Translations under genes and position numbers: made by a program
Shown here: positions 3,339-14,652 of the stretch, one piece after another
How the letters are laid out: every line of letters begins with the position of its first letter
How positions within the stretch are numbered: the first letter of the stretch is position 1
Assembly: GCA_963558405.1 (NCBI GenBank)
Contig: CAUWGC010000021.1
Span: 1-24,731, forward strand
Direction of reading: 5' to 3'
Source of the DNA: an uncultured Clostridia bacterium
Lineage (GTDB): Bacteria; Bacillota; Clostridia; TANB77; CAG-508
DNA: 24,731 nt
Notes under the pieces: generated by a model
Told to the model about the DNA's origin: nothing
Databases searched by the model: none
What the model saw: the letters and a program-made list of their open reading frames with translations, nothing else

Positions 3339-3806
3339 ATGGATAAAAAAGAAAGAATTTTACAAATGTATTTTGAAGAACACCAGAAACAAGACATTAT
3401 TGCTGAAACTGTTGAGGTTTCTCAAAGTTATATTTCTCAAGTAATTCAGAAAGATACAAGATATACTAGTGAAAAAGAAATAAGACATAATGAATCAATG
3501 CAGAAAAAGGCTGAATATAATAAAGAGTATAGTAAAACTTATATTAGAAAAAGGAAAAATAATTTAATAGAAGAATATTATGCTTTACTTGAATTGCTAA
3601 AAAAAGATAACAAGTTTCTATCAACAAAATCTGAAATGTCAGATATTGCATTTGCTAAATGGAATAGATCAATTTATCAATATGCCAAAAATTCTAGCAA
3701 TTTAGTTTTAAGAAAAGGAATAAATGTTACAAAAGATGTACCAAGAGTAGTAAAAAATATTGTGAGAGCAAGTAGTATAAAAAGTTCAAAGATATATTCA
3801 AGATAA
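3339..3806 (+). CDS. Helix-turn-helix DNA-binding protein
   Basis: KQDIIAETVEVSQSYISQVI HTH-like segment; AAGGAG RBS. Confidence 0.65.
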   Translation: MDKKERILQMYFEEHQKQDIIAETVEVSQSYISQVIQKDTRYTSEKEIRHNESMQKKAEYNKEYSKTYIRKRKNNLIEEYYALLELLKKDNKFLSTKSEMSDIAFAKWNRSIYQYAKNSSNLVLRKGINVTKDVPRVVKNIVRASSIKSSKIYSR

Positions 3807-3836
3807 TCACTTTGTTAAGTCAAAGTGAATTTTTTT
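3807..3836 (+). terminator. Intrinsic terminator
   Basis: tcactttg-ttaagt-caaagtga followed by a T run. Confidence 0.55.
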
Positions 3837-3838
3837 AG

Positions 3839-3867
3839 TAATATTTTTAGAACTTTAATAATAGTAT
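3839..3867 (+). promoter_or_regulatory. Putative sigmaE-type promoter of the 55-aa ORF
   Basis: TAATATT-N14-AATAGTAT; same -35 (AGTAATATTT) and spacing as upstream of bofA; AT-rich background weakens the call. Confidence 0.35.
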
Positions 3868-3890
3868 TGAAAAGAAAGTAGGTGAGAATT

Positions 3891-4058
3891 TTGAAAAAGT
3901 CTTTAAATATTACATTTTATAATCCTAATACAGAAGAACAAATAGTACAAGCATTTGCTGGAGTTTTGGCGTATAACTTGGCAGAGAATAATGAAAAGAT
4001 AAAATTTGATTATAATTTTCAAAATTCTCACTGTATAGAAGATGAAATTGAGATATAA
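3891..4058 (+). CDS. Small 55-aa protein (MKKSLNITFYNPNTEEQIVQAF...), candidate recombination directionality factor
   Basis: Not in the ORF track; TTG start after AGTAGGTGA RBS, open to TAA 4056-4058; function is inference. Confidence 0.6.
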   Translation: MKKSLNITFYNPNTEEQIVQAFAGVLAYNLAENNEKIKFDYNFQNSHCIEDEIEI

Positions 4059-4178
4059 AATTTAATAATATTAATTGAATAAAATAATCATATATGTTAA
4101 AATCGAAACAGATAATATTTTTCTTATATATAGATAAATACGATAAAATGTAGTATAATAGAAAGAGAGGTTGATTTT

Positions 4179-4619
4179 ATGCTAAAATTATATTTAGATA
4201 CTTGTTGTTATAATAGACCATTTGATGATTTAGAACAAGAAAAAATAAACCTAGAGGCAAATGCAATAGAGAATATATTTAGAAAGCATATAAATAAAGA
4301 AGTAGAAATTTATAAAAGTATGGTAATAGATTTTGAAATATCCAAAATCAAATTAGATAATAAAAGACGACAAGTAGAAGATTTATATGACGCAATGGAA
4401 TTATCACAAATTACTTATACACCAGAAATTAAACAAAGAGCATTAGAATTAAAGCAATTTAATATAAAAGATATGGATGCATTACATTTATCTTTTGCAG
4501 AGAGTGCAGATATAGATTATTTTATTACAACTGACAGGTTGTTAATAAATGCTTCAAAAAGAGCAAATTTAAGAATTAAAGTTATAAATCCAATAGAATT
4601 TATTATGGAGGTGATTTAA
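4179..4619 (+). CDS. PIN-domain (VapC-like) protein
   Basis: LYLDTCCYNRPFDD...DMDALHL...YFITTD acidic PIN motifs. Confidence 0.85.
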   Translation: MLKLYLDTCCYNRPFDDLEQEKINLEANAIENIFRKHINKEVEIYKSMVIDFEISKIKLDNKRRQVEDLYDAMELSQITYTPEIKQRALELKQFNIKDMDALHLSFAESADIDYFITTDRLLINASKRANLRIKVINPIEFIMEVI

Positions 4620-4820
4620 ATGGCTGTAACAGTAAGAGAGTTAGAAAGAATAAGACGAGAAGGTCTTAAAGCTTTAAAAGATAAATTAGGTGTTGAAGGT
4701 ATGATAAAATTTATACAAATGTATAGTGATGGAAAAGGAGATTATACAAAGGAAAAATATGAAAACAATGAAGAATTGACAATAGAAGATTTTGAAAAAT
4801 ATTTAGCTGAAAACAACTAA
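4620..4820 (+). CDS. Small putative antitoxin partner of the PIN protein
   Basis: Abuts the PIN stop (TAA-ATG), GGAGGTG RBS inside the PIN gene; 66 aa with acidic tail. Confidence 0.65.
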   Translation: MAVTVRELERIRREGLKALKDKLGVEGMIKFIQMYSDGKGDYTKEKYENNEELTIEDFEKYLAENN

Positions 4821-4838
4821 TCAAATGTTAATCGCAAC

Positions 4839-4920
4839 CCTATTTGCGTAATATAAATGCATAGGTGAACAGATGTAACTCTTTGGCTCTACTTGCGACA
4901 AATAAATGCGTAGATGAACA
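4839..4920. repeat. Two 33-nt imperfect direct repeats, each forming a hairpin
   Basis: 4839-4871 and 4888-4920, 26/33 identical. Confidence 0.75.
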
Positions 4921-4926
4921 AATTAT

Positions 4927-4961
4927 AAAAAGCTATTCCTAAATGCAGGAGTAGTTTTTTT
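4927..4961 (+). terminator. Intrinsic terminator between the TA pair and the recombinase
   Basis: aaaaagctattcct-aaatgc-aggagtagttttttt. Confidence 0.7.
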
Positions 4962-4971
4962 ATGCGTTTTA

Positions 4972-5000
4972 TTGCTTTTTTATAACTTATATGCTAAAAT
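4972..5000 (+). promoter_or_regulatory. sigmaA-like promoter of the recombinase
   Basis: TTGCTT-N17-TAAAAT with TG extension. Confidence 0.55.
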
Positions 5001-5063: not shown

Positions 5064-6653
5064 ATGAAAATTGCAGCATATTGTAGAGTTTCAACTGAAA
5101 AGGAAGCACAAATAGACTCTCTTGAAAAGCAAATAGAGTTTTTTAATGAATTTACAAAAAAGAATGGCTATGAGTTGTACAAGCTATATGCAGATGAAGG
5201 AATTTCTGGAAAACAAATAAAACACAGAAAGCAATTCCAACAAATGATGAAAGACGCAAAGGCAAAAAAATTTGAAAGAGTAGTTGTAAAAGATGTAAGC
5301 CGTTTTGCAAGAAATACAGTAGATTTATTACAAAGTATAAGAGAATTAAAATCTTATGGAATACAAGTAGACTTTTTAAATAATGGCGAAGTTATGGAAG
5401 GTGGATCTGAATTTATACTAACAATTTTAGGTGCAATGGCACAACAGGAAAGTGCCAATATGTCTAAAAGAGTTAAATTTGGAAAAGACATTACTGCTAA
5501 AAAAGGAAGAGTACCTAATTTGGTATTTGGTTATGACAAAATACCAGGTGAAAAATATACATTAAAAATAAACGAAGAAGAAGCAAAAATTGTAAAAGAA
5601 ATATTTGAAAGCTATGTATATAAAGGTACTGGTACAACAAAAATTGCTTGGGAATTAAATGATAGAGGAATAAGAACAAAGAAAACAAAGTCAAAATGGG
5701 TCCAAACTTCTATTGTAAGAATGCTAAAAAATCCAATATATACAGGCAGAGTAACAAATAAGAAATCAGAAATTACTGACTTTATAACAGGAGCAAGAAA
5801 AGAGCTACCAGAAGAAGATTGGCTTATTTCTGACAAACCAGAAATGAGAATTATATCAGATGAATTGTTTAATAGAGCACAAGATATTTTAAAACAAAGG
5901 TCAAATGAATTTAAACTAAACAATAAAAGAGAAAAAACAGAATATGTATTTAGTACACTTATCTATTGTAAACATTGTGGTTATTCATTTAGAAGGATAA
6001 GAAGGAAATATACAGAAGAAGGTAAAGAATATATAAGATGGGTATGTAGTGGAAGAAACTCAATGGGTGTAAATCATTGTCCGAATACAACTGTTATAGA
6101 TGAAGAAGAACTTTTAAATGCTATTAAAGAATATCTTAAAAGTATAATTTCTAATAAAAAGAACTTTATGAAAGCAGTTGAAAAAGAATTTGAAAAAATA
6201 ACAGCTTTAAGAGAAAGCAATGAAAGAAGTGAAGAAAGCCTACTTAAAGAAATAGAAAAAGTAACAGTTAAAAAACAAAAATATATGGAAATGTTCCAAA
6301 ATGAAGTAATCAATATGCAAGAACTAAAACAATATACAAATCCATTAAATGAAGATATAGCAAGATTAGAAAGAGAACTAAAGCTAATTACTTCTGAAAT
6401 AAAGGAAAAAGATGTATTAGAAAAAGAACTAACAAAAACAATAAGTACAGTTGATGATATTTTAAATAATGAAACAATTACAAATGCTATGCTTAAAACA
6501 ATAATAGATGCTATTTACGTAGATAGCGAAGGAAATGTAGAAGTAAGACTAAAATTATTAAATGAAATTGGAAGTCAGCCTACAGTAATTACAAATTTTG
6601 AAGATATTAATTCTACCGTTACGAAAAGTAACAACGGTACACAAAGATGTTAG
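5064..6653 (+). CDS. Large serine recombinase (SpoIVCA/CisA-like architecture)
   Basis: YCRVST catalytic Ser, DEGISG, KDVSRFARN, recombinase domain, CKHC...C...C zinc ribbon, coiled coil. Confidence 0.93.
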   Translation: MKIAAYCRVSTEKEAQIDSLEKQIEFFNEFTKKNGYELYKLYADEGISGKQIKHRKQFQQMMKDAKAKKFERVVVKDVSRFARNTVDLLQSIRELKSYGIQVDFLNNGEVMEGGSEFILTILGAMAQQESANMSKRVKFGKDITAKKGRVPNLVFGYDKIPGEKYTLKINEEEAKIVKEIFESYVYKGTGTTKIAWELNDRGIRTKKTKSKWVQTSIVRMLKNPIYTGRVTNKKSEITDFITGARKELPEEDWLISDKPEMRIISDELFNRAQDILKQRSNEFKLNNKREKTEYVFSTLIYCKHCGYSFRRIRRKYTEEGKEYIRWVCSGRNSMGVNHCPNTTVIDEEELLNAIKEYLKSIISNKKNFMKAVEKEFEKITALRESNERSEESLLKEIEKVTVKKQKYMEMFQNEVINMQELKQYTNPLNEDIARLERELKLITSEIKEKDVLEKELTKTISTVDDILNNETITNAMLKTIIDAIYVDSEGNVEVRLKLLNEIGSQPTVITNFEDINSTVTKSNNGTQRC

Positions 6654-6792
6654 TGAAAGACTACTTAAGATAAATCCAGCTTTAGCTCATGAAGTAAGAG
6701 AAATCTTAAATGAGAATAAAGCAGAAAGACATATAAGAGGAGGAATGGCTACAAAATTAAAATATAGTCATCAACATGAAAATGTAGGTTAA
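6634..6792 (+). pseudogene. spoIIID: 3' half of spoIIID (split gene; N-terminal ~35 codons absent)
   Basis: TVHKDVSERLLKINPALAHEVREILNENKAERHIRGGMATKLKY matches the SpoIIID C-terminal signature; upstream in-frame residues do not match. Confidence 0.88.
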
Positions 6793-8292: not shown

Positions 8293-8320
8293 TCATATTT
8301 TTACTAAAACAAAATACAAT
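8293..8320 (+). promoter_or_regulatory. sigmaE-type promoter of the SPOCS/LysM gene
   Basis: TCATATT-N13-AATACAAT. Confidence 0.6.
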
Positions 8321-8353: not shown

Positions 8354-9904
8354 ATGATAGATGCAGAAAAAGACAATCTATGTATTAATAGAATAATTGG
8401 AGAAAAAGTAGATAATACAATAGTAGAAGGAGATGTTATAGTTCCAGATATTAAACCAGATTGTTTGAGTATTATTCATACAAGTGGAAATGTATGTATT
8501 TATAAAAAAGAAGTATTAGACGGAAAGGTAAAAATAGAAGGAAGCATTAATACTTATATTATTTATTTAGCAGATGATGAAAAAAATAGTATAAGATCTT
8601 TAAATACTAACATAGATTTTACAGAGATGTTTAATATAGAAGAAGCAAAAATAGGTATGAGTTTAGAAGAGCAAACTTTAATAAAACAAATGGATTGTAA
8701 TATTTTAAATGGAAGAAAAGTAAATGTTAAAATAAATATGGAAGTAAAAACAAAAGTATATTCTAATGATACAATAGAATTTATAAAACAAGTAAAAGGA
8801 GAAGAGGACATTCAATTGTTAAATAAAGCTTTTAATATTAATTCTTTAAAAGGTGAAGGAAAATCTAATGTATATGCAAAAGATACTTTAATATTAGATA
8901 ATGTAGATAATTTAGCAGAAATATTAAAGGTAGATTTAAAACTTATTAATAAGGATACAAAAATAAGTTACAACAAAGTATTGGCTAAAGCAGATGCTGT
9001 CATAAAAATTTTGTATTTAACAGAAGATAATAGGATTAACAGTATAGAAGGAAATATTCCTGTAATGGGATTTATTGATATTCAAGATGTTACAGATGAA
9101 AATATTTGTGATATGAGGTATGAATTAAAAAATATATTAGTAAAACCAAATAGTGTTGAAGAACATTCTATATATGTAGAAGCAGAAATAGAAATTTCTT
9201 GCAAAGTATATGAAAATAAACAAATAGAAATTATTCAAGATTTATATAGTATAACAGGAGAAGCAGAATTTACTCAAAAAGAAGTAGAAACAATGACAGA
9301 AAAATTAAATATTAAAGATGTATGTAGCATTAGACAAAGTAGTCTTATACCAGAAATAAATGGAAATAAAATATATGATGTGGAAGTAAATCCTGCTATA
9401 ATAAAGCAAAATATATTAAAAGACAGAGTTGTATATGAAGGAGAAGTAACACTAAAGTTTATTTTTTCATCAGATATTCAAGGAAGAATGGATAGCAAAA
9501 TAATAACATTACCATATGAATTTAGTGTAGATATAGCAGGAATTAATCAATCATCAGAAATTATGACTAGTATTGATGTAAATATGGATACTTTTGTACT
9601 TATGCCAGATGGAAATATGGATATAAAGATAGATTTAGGATTTGAAATAAGTGTATCTAGAAAAGTAAAATTATCTATGATTCAAGAAATTAATTTAAAA
9701 GAAAGTAGAGATATAAAAATTTATAGTGTTATTATATATTTTGTAAAACCAGGAGATACTTTATGGAATATTGCAAAAAAATTTAGAAGCACAGTAGATG
9801 CTATTGCAAAATTAAATAATATAGAAGATGTTAATAATTTAAAAATAGGACAGCAGTTATTTATTCCTAAATATGTTGGAGGAAGTAAAGAGGCAACTGC
9901 TTAA
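8354..9904 (+). CDS. sipL: SPOCS (DUF3794) repeats plus C-terminal LysM; SipL-like spore coat morphogenetic protein
   Basis: EGDVIVPDIKPD start, three repeated domains, YFVKPGDTLWNIAKKF LysM. Confidence 0.8.
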   Translation: MIDAEKDNLCINRIIGEKVDNTIVEGDVIVPDIKPDCLSIIHTSGNVCIYKKEVLDGKVKIEGSINTYIIYLADDEKNSIRSLNTNIDFTEMFNIEEAKIGMSLEEQTLIKQMDCNILNGRKVNVKINMEVKTKVYSNDTIEFIKQVKGEEDIQLLNKAFNINSLKGEGKSNVYAKDTLILDNVDNLAEILKVDLKLINKDTKISYNKVLAKADAVIKILYLTEDNRINSIEGNIPVMGFIDIQDVTDENICDMRYELKNILVKPNSVEEHSIYVEAEIEISCKVYENKQIEIIQDLYSITGEAEFTQKEVETMTEKLNIKDVCSIRQSSLIPEINGNKIYDVEVNPAIIKQNILKDRVVYEGEVTLKFIFSSDIQGRMDSKIITLPYEFSVDIAGINQSSEIMTSIDVNMDTFVLMPDGNMDIKIDLGFEISVSRKVKLSMIQEINLKESRDIKIYSVIIYFVKPGDTLWNIAKKFRSTVDAIAKLNNIEDVNNLKIGQQLFIPKYVGGSKEATA

Positions 9905-9914
9905 AGGTAGAAGT

Positions 9915-10652
9915 ATGGATAAAATCTATTCAAGAAATAGAATTAAATTTCATAATAAAATGCCTAAAATAAATTTTTTCTTTAAGAAATCTAATTTACC
10001 CGAAAATAACAAAGTGGCAAAAAAAGTAATTACTATAGTAATAATTTTATGTATTGCTTTTTTAGTAGCAAAAACAATATTACAAGCAATATATCCAATT
10101 TTTGAAACTTTATGTGAAAATAGAGCAATGGCAATAGCTACTAGAATATCTAATGAACAAGCAACTAATGTAATGGCTAATTATAAATATCAAGATTTGT
10201 GTACTGTAACTAAAGATGTTAATGGAAATGTAACAATGATAAAATCAAATATTATACCAATTAATGAAATCATATCAGATATAGCAGTTCGTATACAAAA
10301 AGAGTTAGATAAAGAAAGTAGTACATCATTTGATATTAGATTAGGAAGTTTTACAGGAAGTAAATTGCTTTCAGGAATAGGACCAGAAATACATTTTAAA
10401 ATGTCTAGTGTAGGCAATGTAGAAACAGATTTAAGATCAGAATTTTCTTCTGCAGGAGTTAATCAAACATTACATAAAATTTATCTGCAAGTAGAATGTA
10501 ATGTACAGATATTAACACCATTTAATATTATAGAAAAAAGAATTTCAAATCAAGTACTTTTAGCAGAAGCGGTAATTATAGGAACAGTACCAGATACTTA
10601 TTATAATTTAGAAGGAATGACAAAAGATAATGCAATAAACCTAATAGAATGA
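9915..10652 (+). CDS. yunB: Sporulation protein YunB
   Basis: N-terminal TM segment; LSGIGPEI...SEFSSAGVNQTLHKIYL...IIGTVPDTY; start moved to ATG 9915. Confidence 0.88.
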   Translation: MDKIYSRNRIKFHNKMPKINFFFKKSNLPENNKVAKKVITIVIILCIAFLVAKTILQAIYPIFETLCENRAMAIATRISNEQATNVMANYKYQDLCTVTKDVNGNVTMIKSNIIPINEIISDIAVRIQKELDKESSTSFDIRLGSFTGSKLLSGIGPEIHFKMSSVGNVETDLRSEFSSAGVNQTLHKIYLQVECNVQILTPFNIIEKRISNQVLLAEAVIIGTVPDTYYNLEGMTKDNAINLIE

Positions 10653-10728: not shown

Positions 10729-12543
10729 ATGGAAAAATCAAAACAACAAAACATTCGTAATTTTAGTATTATTGCACATATTGACCATGGAAAATCAACA
10801 TTAGCAGATAGATTAATAGAAATGACAGGTGTACTTACAGATAGAGAAATGGAAAGTCAAGTACTAGATAATATGGAATTAGAAAAAGAAAGAGGAATAA
10901 CAATTAAATCCCAAGCAGTACGTATGAAATATAAATCTTCAGATGGTGAAGAATATATTTTAAATTTAATAGATACTCCAGGACATGTGGACTTTAATTA
11001 TGAAGTATCAAGAAGTTTAGCAGCTTGTGATGGGGCCGTTTTGGTAGTAGATGCAAGTCAAGGTGTAGAAGCTCAAACTTTAGCTAATGTTTATTTAGCA
11101 TTAGATAATAATCTAGAAATAATACCAGTTATAAATAAAATAGATTTACCTAATGCAAGACCAGATGAAGTAAAAAAAGAAATAGAAGATATTATTGGAA
11201 TAGATGCTGAAGATGCACCATGTATTTCTGCAAAATCAGGTTTAAATGTTGAAAAAGTATTAGAAAAAATAGTAAAAGATTTGCCAGCTCCACAAGGTGA
11301 TGAGAACAAACCTTTAAAGTCACTTATTTTTGATTCATATTATGATAATTATAAAGGTGCAATTGCATATGTTAGAGTGGTTGACGGAACAGTAAAAGAG
11401 GGCGATGAAATTTTATTAATGGCAACAGGGAAAAAATTTGTAGTAACAGAAGTAGGTTACTTTGAGCCTGGTATTTATAAAAAAGCTGATGAGTTATCAG
11501 CAGGAGAAGTAGGATATATAGCAGCTAGTATTAAAAATTTGGAAGATTTACACGTAGGGGATACAATTACTAAAAGTGAAGAACCAGCAAAAGAACCTTT
11601 AGAAGGATACAAAGCTGTAAATCCAATGGTATATTGCGGAATATATCCAATGGATGGAAGCGATTATGAGAATTTAAAAGTTGCTTTAGAAAAATTAAAG
11701 CTTAATGATGCAGCACTTACATTTGAAGCAGAAACATCTGCTGCATTAGGTTTTGGATTTCGTTGTGGATTTTTAGGGTTATTACACTTAGAAATTATAG
11801 AAGAAAGATTAGACAGGGAATATGGTTTAAGTTTAATTACAACATCACCTTCTGTTATTTATCATGTACATAAAACAAATGGAGAAGTAATAGAATTATA
11901 TAACCCTTCAGATTTACCACCTCAATCAGAAATATCATTTATGGAAGAGCCTTTTGTAACTGCAGAAATATTAACACCTAAGGAATATGTAGGAAATATA
12001 ATGGAAATATGTCAAAACAGAAGAGGAATTTATAAAGATATGAAGTATTTAGACCAAAATCGTGTTACATTATATTATGAAATGCCTTTAAACGAAATTA
12101 TATATGACTTTTTTGATAATTTAAAATCAAAAACAAAGGGATATGCTTCTTTTGATTATGAATTTAAAGAATATGTAAAATCAGATTTAGTTAAACTTGA
12201 TATATATGTAAATGGTGAAAGTGTTGATGCATTATCTTTTATTGTACATAAGGATAATAGTTATACAAGGGGCAAAAAAATGGTAGAAAAATTAAAAGAA
12301 GTAATACCAAGGAAATTATTTGCAATTCCTCTTCAAGCTGTTATAGGCGGAAAAATCATAGCCAGAGAAACAATTTCAGCAATGAGAAAAGACGTACTTG
12401 CAAAATGCTATGGAGGAGATATAACTAGAAAGAAAAAATTACTAGAAAAACAAAAAAGAGGAAAGAAAAAAATGCGTGAAATTGGAAATGTAGAAATGCC
12501 TCAAGAAGCATTTTTATCAATATTAAAATTAGATGAGGAGTAA
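10729..12543 (+). CDS. lepA: Elongation factor 4
   Basis: [52 protein letters not shown]. Confidence 0.98.
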
Positions 12544-14623: not shown

Positions 14624-14652
14624 TAATATTTGTCCTACTTATTTCATAAAAA
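14624..14652 (+). promoter_or_regulatory. sigmaE-type promoter of bofA
   Basis: TAATATT-N14-CATAAAAA; bofA is sigmaE-dependent in B. subtilis. Confidence 0.45.

Follow-up and report, generated by a model that had tools for sequence, protein, structure and literature searches.

The analysed stretch, referred to here as the window, is the entire 24.7-kb contig CAUWGC010000021.1 (24,731 nucleotides (nt); assembly GCA_963558405.1, 1.58 Mb, 27% G+C) of an uncultured Clostridia bacterium. Its leftmost 6.6 kb form the right-hand portion of a mobile element by which the sporulation gene spoIIID is split. This part carries a gene for a large serine recombinase and, upstream of it, an open reading frame (ORF) of 55 codons, which is the candidate gene for a recombination directionality factor (RDF). 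Features of the small gene, the recombinase gene and the right-hand attachment site are as follows.

3807-3836, + strand: intrinsic-terminator-like hairpin (stem 3807-3814 / 3821-3828) with T-run, closing a gene for a 155-amino-acid (aa) helix-turn-helix (HTH) protein
3838-3845, + strand: -35-like element GTAATATT, read as GTAATA (3838-3843) or TAATATT (3839-3845)
3860-3867, + strand: -10-like element AATAGTAT, 16 nt after GTAATA; predicted transcript start at about 3873-3877
3880-3885, + strand: ribosome-binding site AGGTGA, 5 nt ahead of the TTG
3891-4058, + strand: small ORF, 55 codons, TTG start, stop at 4056-4058; candidate RDF gene
3882-4058, + strand: longer, GTG-started form of the small ORF (58 aa) in the open-reading-frame listing
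4927-4960, + strand: terminator-like hairpin upstream of the recombinase promoter, conserved in the alignment
4972-5000, + strand: recombinase promoter of the extended -10 housekeeping type, TTGCTT (4972-4977)-N17-TAAAAT (4995-5000), with TG at 4992-4993
5064-6653, + strand: large serine recombinase, 529 aa, with Resolvase, Recombinase and Zn_ribbon_recom domains and a coiled coil at about residues 360-480
6614-6665, + strand: attR, crossover within or adjacent to CACA (6640-6643); ACCGTTAC is part of the half site on the element side
6631-6792, + strand: 3′ half of spoIIID (SpoIIID profile positions 34-81, E 1e-21)

The initial annotation of the window had described a TTG-start ORF with a good ribosome-binding site, separated from the upstream gene by a terminator and preceded by TAATATT-N14-AATAGTAT, and had assigned a sigmaA-type promoter at 4972-5000 to the recombinase. 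All of these elements were found at the positions listed. The hairpin at 3807-3828 consists of an 8-bp stem with three G-C pairs, a 6-nt loop and the tail ATTTTTTTAG; three terminator-like sites were observed in the region compared to 0.3 ± 0.5 in shuffled sequences. The encoded small protein is acidic, with a pI of 4.5 and a mass of 6.4 kDa.

Of 201 genomes belonging to this taxonomic family, 25 were found by a six-frame search (E < 1e-5) to contain a homologue of the small gene, source genome included. When genomes of the order were searched with a profile, 24 of 175 further genomes of this bacterial family were positive, compared to none of 125 genomes from four sister families. The frame is open in all 21 full-length copies with length changes being in-frame, and the TTG start is present in 22 of 22 copies examined, behind a conserved GGTGAG. 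A conserved core, ITF(I/Y)NPNTEEQIVQAMAGVLAYNLAEN, is followed by a variable acidic tail. The median ratio of nonsynonymous to synonymous substitution rates (dN/dS) was 0.18 (197 of 210 pairs with dS > 0.1; 21 full-length copies, one copy truncated by a contig end being omitted). Because it is conserved and under purifying selection, the small ORF stands above chance; it is a real gene.

Searching a large protein collection at E up to 0.01 yielded 958 clusters, all of them short, unnamed or 'hypothetical' proteins from metagenome-assembled genomes (MAGs) of gut Clostridia. Clustering at 50% left only 53 representatives of 38-113 aa, except for one weak match within a 776-aa protein, and the family is therefore tight. 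In public MAG records, homologues bear the label 'hypothetical protein', which was also all that Atlas returned for the family. The 55-aa protein matched none of the Pfam and PHROGs families at E up to 0.1, and tblastn with the small protein gave no match in phage genomes. With a profile of 14 members, the only match among all PDB chains at E up to 10 was the unrelated chain 2aby_A (E 0.46). No similarity to YotN, the RDF of SPbeta, was obtained with the YokA-YotN fusion (chain 9dxd_A) among the chains searched.

The linkage of the small gene to the recombinase was examined up to 10 kb to each side of 21 homologues, with the genes of the window located by tblastn, resulting in 22 loci with the window included. 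In all 17 loci that carry both genes on one contig, the small gene precedes, in the same orientation, the recombinase gene abutting the 3′ half of spoIIID. The distance between the two genes ranges from 152 nt to 3.7 kb and the cargo in between varies: five loci hold a PIN-domain gene pair, three have extra fragments and the others carry different genes. In the remaining five loci the contig stops within the small gene or not more than about 360 nt downstream of it. One half of spoIIID is found on the same contig in 21 of the 22 loci. A search for the recombinase in the same 201 genomes gave 25 positives, 20 of which have both genes. The five genomes with only the recombinase comprise four in which it is cut by, or lies less than 430 nt from, a contig end and a fifth (G034) with a distant pair; the five with only the ORF comprise four in which it lies at a contig end and a fifth (G036) with a decayed fragment beside an intact spoIIID. 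The mismatches at genome level are thus due to contig ends (eight), the decayed remnant (one) and the distant pair (one).

Ten complete elements were obtained, measuring 8.0-14.1 kb between the two spoIIID halves. Clustering of all ORFs clearly demonstrated that only the small gene and the recombinase gene are common to all ten; the other ORF clusters present in eight to ten elements are antisense shadows within the recombinase gene. The initial annotation had proposed linkage of homologues to serine recombinases as a check of its RDF prediction, and the 17 co-oriented loci and ten complete elements bear this linkage out. The next commonest gene, found in seven of the ten, encodes a Mob_Pre (MobV-type) relaxase of 415 aa near the left end of the element (L034, L037, L041-L044 and L047; in L034 at 11280-12527, minus strand). 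These are therefore integrative mobilizable elements rather than prophages or prophage remnants.

The distant pair in G034 belongs to another element that splits spoIIID, the recombinase of which is 49% identical to that of the window. Its gene order (HTH gene, small gene, recombinase, 3′ half of spoIIID) is the same as in the window, with an HTH protein 34% identical to the 155-aa protein. The small ORF of 48 aa, MKSNLNFKIIDPNTKTQLENAL..., shows about 30% identity to the family and keeps the invariant residues L5, P12, N13, T14, Q17, A21 and L30. Ahead of this gene (locus L057) lies GTAATA-N16-AATATACA, sharing the -35 hexamer and the spacing with the window, in upstream DNA that is otherwise unrelated; its -10 octamer is the one ahead of the window genome's own spoIVA.

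The recombinase gene of the window ends inside the sequence that continues as the 3′ half of spoIIID, and in complete relatives both halves of spoIIID flank the element. To read the attachment site attR, we compared it with the intact spoIIID of L004 and with both att sites, attL and attR, of L037, a complete relative. In this reading of attL and attR sequences the two spoIIID halves share CACA at the joint, and joining them would restore ...STVHKDV.... One contig from a chicken-gut RNA library (run X15) runs from inside the recombinase gene to position 6643 and then continues as CCGAAGTAACATTCCAGAACGGTAA..., which at the left end of L037 comes after the spoIIID 5′ half (29 of 30 bases). The loose end at 6643 agrees with the inferred crossover site. 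This attP-like joint, seen in a single contig of a single run, represents either an excised circle or two tandem elements.

Large serine recombinases integrate on their own and require a cognate RDF for excision, as described in PMC5595907 and PMC12286644. The small protein was co-folded with residues 285-510 of the recombinase (zinc-ribbon and coiled coil) using shallow alignments of 15 and 14 rows; co-folding with the coiled coil had been another check put forward by the initial annotation. The complex scored 0.73 (0.77, 0.73 and 0.65 in the individual runs) compared to 0.00 for the best, and thus for each, of the three controls. In the calibration, 116 of 157 solved complexes attained the pass mark, as did 2 of 215 mismatched pairs. 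At least 67% of the contacts were common to the runs, and the pLDDT (predicted local distance difference test) of the partner was at least 52. The small protein is predicted to bind at the junction of zinc-ribbon and coiled coil: residues 4-13 would pair as a strand with residues 490-500 of the recombinase, the last strand of the domain, and helix 15-31 would rest on residues 343-383 and 456-480, the outgoing and returning parts of the domain-proximal coiled coil. According to PMC12286644, verified RDFs are all predicted at this junction, most of them adding a strand to the sheet and many touching the proximal coiled coil; the same source cites cryo-electron microscopy work on SPbeta in which RDF binding locks the hinge. 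We consider it highly probable that the 55-aa protein is the RDF of the recombinase encoded at 5064-6653.

The upstream regions of the small gene were aligned as 19 distinct sequences. GT[AT]ATA is kept in 16 and ATAGTATT in 18 of them, with the spacer differing at several positions; upstream of the -35 element the DNA is unrelated between element subgroups and homology starts at this element. The existence of a promoter is argued by the conservation of both boxes, and its assignment to sigma-E by its form and by the regulatory logic. The predicted leader of the small gene measures about 15-18 nt. Comparison by eye with Tables S6 and S7 of PMC3789822 showed that GTAATA-N15/16-(C/A)ATAnnnT is common among the 47 mapped sigma-E promoters of C. 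difficile, and that the -10 octamer of the CD1319 sigma-E promoter, AATAGTAT, is identical to that of the small gene. Sigma-K promoters of C. difficile have AC at -35 (PMC3789822). The site also resembles those before spoIVA, spoIIP, sipL and bofA in the same genome. Consistent with the initial annotation, the -35 element and spacing are shared with the bofA site at 14624 (GTAATATT-N14-CATAAAAA), and a likeness to the sipL site at 8293 (GTCATATT-N13-AATACAAT) was recovered; two copies of the small gene carry GTAATATT-N13-AATACAAT, which is near the sipL site of the window genome.

Two other assignments of the small-gene promoter were rejected. A sigma-F or sigma-G promoter was dismissed on spacing, the -35 elements of Table S6 being located about three bases farther from the -10 element in our by-eye reading. 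For a housekeeping promoter the -35 element matches at no more than 3 of 6 positions, and the site was not listed by a sigma-70 scan. This simple scan also omitted the recombinase promoter, the -35 element of which fits at 3 of 6 positions. The recombinase promoter (TTG...-N17-TGcTA(A/C/T)AAT, with the hairpin ahead) is conserved in 15 of 17 distinct upstream sequences, in line with the sigmaA-type assignment, and the recombinase looks to be made constitutively. The contrast between a housekeeping-type promoter for the recombinase and a non-housekeeping promoter for the small gene is conserved. Two contigs of an RNA library (run X16; 3687-4010 and 4005-4751) cover the small ORF, possibly by carry-over of DNA; the four sequencing runs examined consist of contigs, from which starts, strand and level are not readable.

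Because the split gene is spoIIID, the trigger of excision has to be independent of SpoIIID and of whatever follows it in the cascade. In B. subtilis and C. difficile the only mother-cell factor acting before SpoIIID is sigma-E. The same order, with sigma-E ahead of SpoIIID, is given in PMC5025042 and PMC3789822. In the mechanism we propose, the recombinase would be produced continuously from its extended -10 promoter and by itself would carry out integration only. The small gene, behind a terminator and with a poor TTG start, would be read from the mother-cell sigma-E-type promoter independently of SpoIIID. Its product would add a beta strand to the last zinc-ribbon strand and lay its helix on the domain-proximal coiled coil, and the redirected coiled coil would enable attL × attR recombination with crossover in or next to CACA. 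The element would then be lost from the mother-cell chromosome and spoIIID rebuilt, whereas the forespore, and hence the spore, would retain the element. The presence of a relaxase points to horizontal transfer as a second use of the same excision. As a whole, we regard as likely a scheme in which the small protein is the RDF of a spoIIID-splitting mobilizable element, made from a sigma-E-type promoter and causing excision in the mother cell. For the separate point that this candidate RDF is driven by sigma-E and specific to the mother cell, we are slightly in favour.

Several observations weigh against this scheme, beginning with the promoter. Most copies lack the leading C of the -10 element, and three loci (L046, L049 and L050) carry GTACTAAAAG...CATAGTATT with a different -35 region, which in our reading of Table S7 of PMC3789822 has the same -35 form and spacing as the spoIIIAG promoter mapped in C. 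difficile. Three sigma-E-like regular expressions matched 13, 6 and 7 of 1286 upstream regions in forward compared to 18, 3 and 6 in reverse orientation, and genome-wide 90 motif matches were found compared to 81 in the reversed sequence. The initial annotation had warned that the promoter match is weak in such AT-rich DNA, and rightly so: a chance match is expected for about one gene in 100, and the genome scan adds no support. A set of 11 genes matching a strict expression, among them sipL and genes for a DacB-like carboxypeptidase, a StoA/ResA-like oxidoreductase and a PdaA-like deacetylase, was dropped as it showed no enrichment over the reverse orientation. With a relaxase in most complete elements, excision may moreover serve transfer instead of, or besides, sporulation. 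Finally, the genomes are relatives, and the linkage counts consequently represent co-inheritance through much cargo turnover rather than independent events.

Two of these points speak for a reading in which the small protein is an RDF but excision is untied to sporulation, a vegetative or transfer-signal promoter leading to conjugative release and spoIIID serving as a landing site. Besides the relaxase in seven of ten complete elements and the non-specific sigma-E-like consensus in this genome, it can draw on the RNA-library contig 3687-4010, which spans the end of the upstream gene, the terminator and most of the ORF, with DNA carry-over as a possible source. A permanently split spoIIID, however, should block sporulation, and yet the insertion is found in about one-eighth of the sampled genomes of a family that retains its sporulation genes. 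The promoter also lacks a housekeeping -35 element and instead fits mapped sigma-E promoters in both boxes and in spacing, and the same two-promoter layout operates in the skin element of C. difficile as described in PMC5025042. We therefore regard release untied to sporulation as unlikely.

The predicted complex has weak points of its own. Its score expresses model confidence only. The controls were three in number and did not include the element's own 66-aa ORF and 155-aa HTH protein, and the pass may partly reflect the model's memory of a solved complex of the same kind, 9dxd, the SPbeta integrase-YotN fusion. In the virtual pulldown reported in PMC12286644, 4 of 11 tested structure-based RDF predictions were false positives. 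As a monomer, the 55-aa protein was modelled with a pLDDT of 61.5 as a single helix (15-32), the rest being mostly disordered. Together with the missing sequence link to known RDFs, this would be compatible with a conserved accessory protein that has no role in directionality and might instead control the expression or stability of the recombinase or act with another protein of the element or the host, the interface being a false positive. Such a protein would hardly be expected in ten of ten complete elements in which everything else except the recombinase varies, and excision requires an RDF for which there is no other universal candidate. In addition, the predicted interface coincides with the very junction that verified RDFs use, the controls having scored 0.00, and known RDFs likewise share no family according to PMC12286644. 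A role other than directionality is in our view even less likely than release untied to sporulation. A non-coding origin, in which the conserved stretch is regulatory DNA or RNA of the recombination module and a short, TTG-started frame is incidental in an AT-rich window where short open frames are common, is very improbable given the dN/dS value, the in-frame length changes, the frame open in 21 of 21 copies, the conserved start and ribosome-binding site and the residue pattern kept by the distant homologue at about 30% identity.

Known targets of intervening elements are sigK, spsM, gerE and a small number of further late genes, and spoIIID acts one step earlier. SPbeta, which is among the systems resembling the proposed RDF-recombinase pair, is an active phage of 134 kb. 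One of the closest parallels is the skin(Cd) element with CD1231 and CD1234, for which PMC5025042 describes a large serine recombinase with a housekeeping promoter and a small acidic protein of no known family, a sigma-E-type promoter with a leader of 14 nt for CD1234 (about 15-18 nt predicted here), a split mother-cell regulatory gene and a recombinase at the element edge beside the 3′ gene half. CD1234 comprises 72 aa with a pI of 5.5 according to this source, compared to 55 aa and 4.5 here. No family library links the two proteins, which are likened by description and not by sequence alignment. The skin(Cd) element differs in its target, sigK instead of spoIIID, and in that CD1234 also requires SpoIIID (PMC5025042), which is impossible where spoIIID itself is split; at 8-14 kb, the elements described here are small, and most of them encode a relaxase.

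The gin element in gerE of Bacillus cereus ATCC 10987, with GirC and GirX, is likewise a non-phage intervening element, and GirX (42 aa) is similarly tiny, has no conserved motif in the account of PMC5595907 and was found as the sole small gene conserved besides the recombinase. The target gene and the host clade are different, and girC is induced during sporulation whereas the recombinase promoter here is of the housekeeping type; furthermore, the activity of GirX was shown in vitro (PMC5595907), while the role of the small protein is read from sequence and model. SPbeta with SprA (YokA) and SprB (YotN; structure 9dxd) resembles our system in the predicted binding mode, a strand and a helix at the proximal coiled coil and zinc-ribbon, as well as in a sporulation-controlled RDF promoter and an element that splits a sporulation gene (PMC11722253, PMC12286644). 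The relationship of the recombinase to YokA is a distant one (E 5e-13) and YotN has no sequence similarity to the small protein, so that the likeness to SprB is one of binding mode and not of sequence. A skin-like element of Ruminiclostridium cellulolyticum is a recombinase-bearing element that also splits spoIIID (bioRxiv 10.1101/2022.02.25.481979); it was compared by description, the report consisting of one sentence without RDF, promoter or distribution. A literature search found no paper naming an RDF for a spoIIID element. The kind of system is thus known, whereas the small-protein family is new and spoIIID as a target is barely described.

Most tools built on large serine recombinases still lack their RDF, and as RDFs share no family each has to be found anew; the 55-aa candidate comes together with its recombinase and att sites. 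If the proposed scheme is true, a mobile element gates the step from sigma-E to SpoIIID in about one-eighth of the sampled genomes of a family of gut Clostridia, under a simpler control than in skin(Cd), namely by sigma-E alone, and the relaxase in most elements ties developmental excision to horizontal mobility. It is conceivable, and we put this forward tentatively, that mobilizable elements act here as a developmental switch set as early as the mother-cell cascade allows, in which SpoIIID and all that follows it, sigma-K included, hinge on a tiny sigma-E-driven RDF of a new family while horizontal exit is retained, a checkpoint between sigma-E and SpoIIID that is absent from model organisms.

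The remaining features of the window are listed below.

285-1510 (within): two ASCH-domain genes, one fused to a GNAT acetyltransferase; cargo of the left end
upstream of the 155-aa gene: genes for a 323-aa protein and a ribbon-helix-helix protein, besides the ASCH/GNAT genes
3339-3806, + strand: 155-aa protein with a weak HTH of the sigma-70 region-4 type, directly upstream of the small gene
4179-4820: PIN-domain gene (146 aa) and 66-aa partner ORF (4620-4820), between the small gene and the recombinase gene
right of spoIIID: yabG, veg, sipL and yunB, and farther on bofA (BofA and SipL domains confirmed)

The 5′ half of spoIIID was searched for in the assembly of the window and was not found; therefore the contig begins within the element, and attL of this copy lies beyond it. 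The left end, where a relaxase gene would be expected, lies beyond the assembly. Homologues of the 155-aa HTH protein occupy the same position in nine related loci, in the distant G034 element and in a further module on contig C7, and are missing from about half of the elements; the protein may be a regulator of the element. The stop of the PIN-domain gene overlaps the start of the 66-aa ORF, and a TATAAT promoter-like site of the pair is located at 4131-4159. The two genes look like a toxin-antitoxin pair and are complete in only five of 22 loci, which makes them cargo rather than core. Imperfect direct repeats of about 20 nt, AAATGC(G/A)TAG(G/A)TGAACA..., lie in the spacer (4820-4930) that separates the 66-aa ORF from the recombinase terminator, and 4826-4967 is replaced or skipped in contigs from other sequencing runs.

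Additional halves of spoIIID were observed in two loci. In L056 (G036:C31) an intact spoIIID is followed by the small-gene fragment and a second 5′ half, and in L040 (G007:C7) two 5′ halves are located 2.5 kb apart upstream of the small gene. Another sequence, MT838016.1 (L074; 6.4 kb, human-faecal, filed as 'Bacteriophage sp.'), carries a recombinase 47% identical to that of the window, followed by a 3′ half of spoIIID and a YqfD-like gene, with two polyphosphate-kinase-2-like ORFs upstream of the recombinase. It looks like a fragment of a bacterial chromosome with another spoIIID-splitting element; no look-alike of the small gene was found just upstream of its recombinase, which says little as the record is a fragment.

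In the G034 element (L057, 10235-11992) the recombinase frame reads through attR into the 3′ half of spoIIID, giving a 586-aa frame that ends in the SpoIIID C-terminus; in the window the recombinase and the 3′ half of spoIIID are in different frames, unlike L057. The window genome holds a second module of like layout on contig C7 (9387-11695; L075) with an HTH protein 36% identical to the 155-aa protein, a 44-aa ORF (9874-10008) and a serine recombinase of 549 aa with a DUF4368 tail. The 44-aa ORF was rejected as a homologue of the small gene (hhalign probability 0.2%), its likeness being positional only. The module is followed by a 317-aa ORF, the start of which resembles a hydrophobic pilin-type helix.

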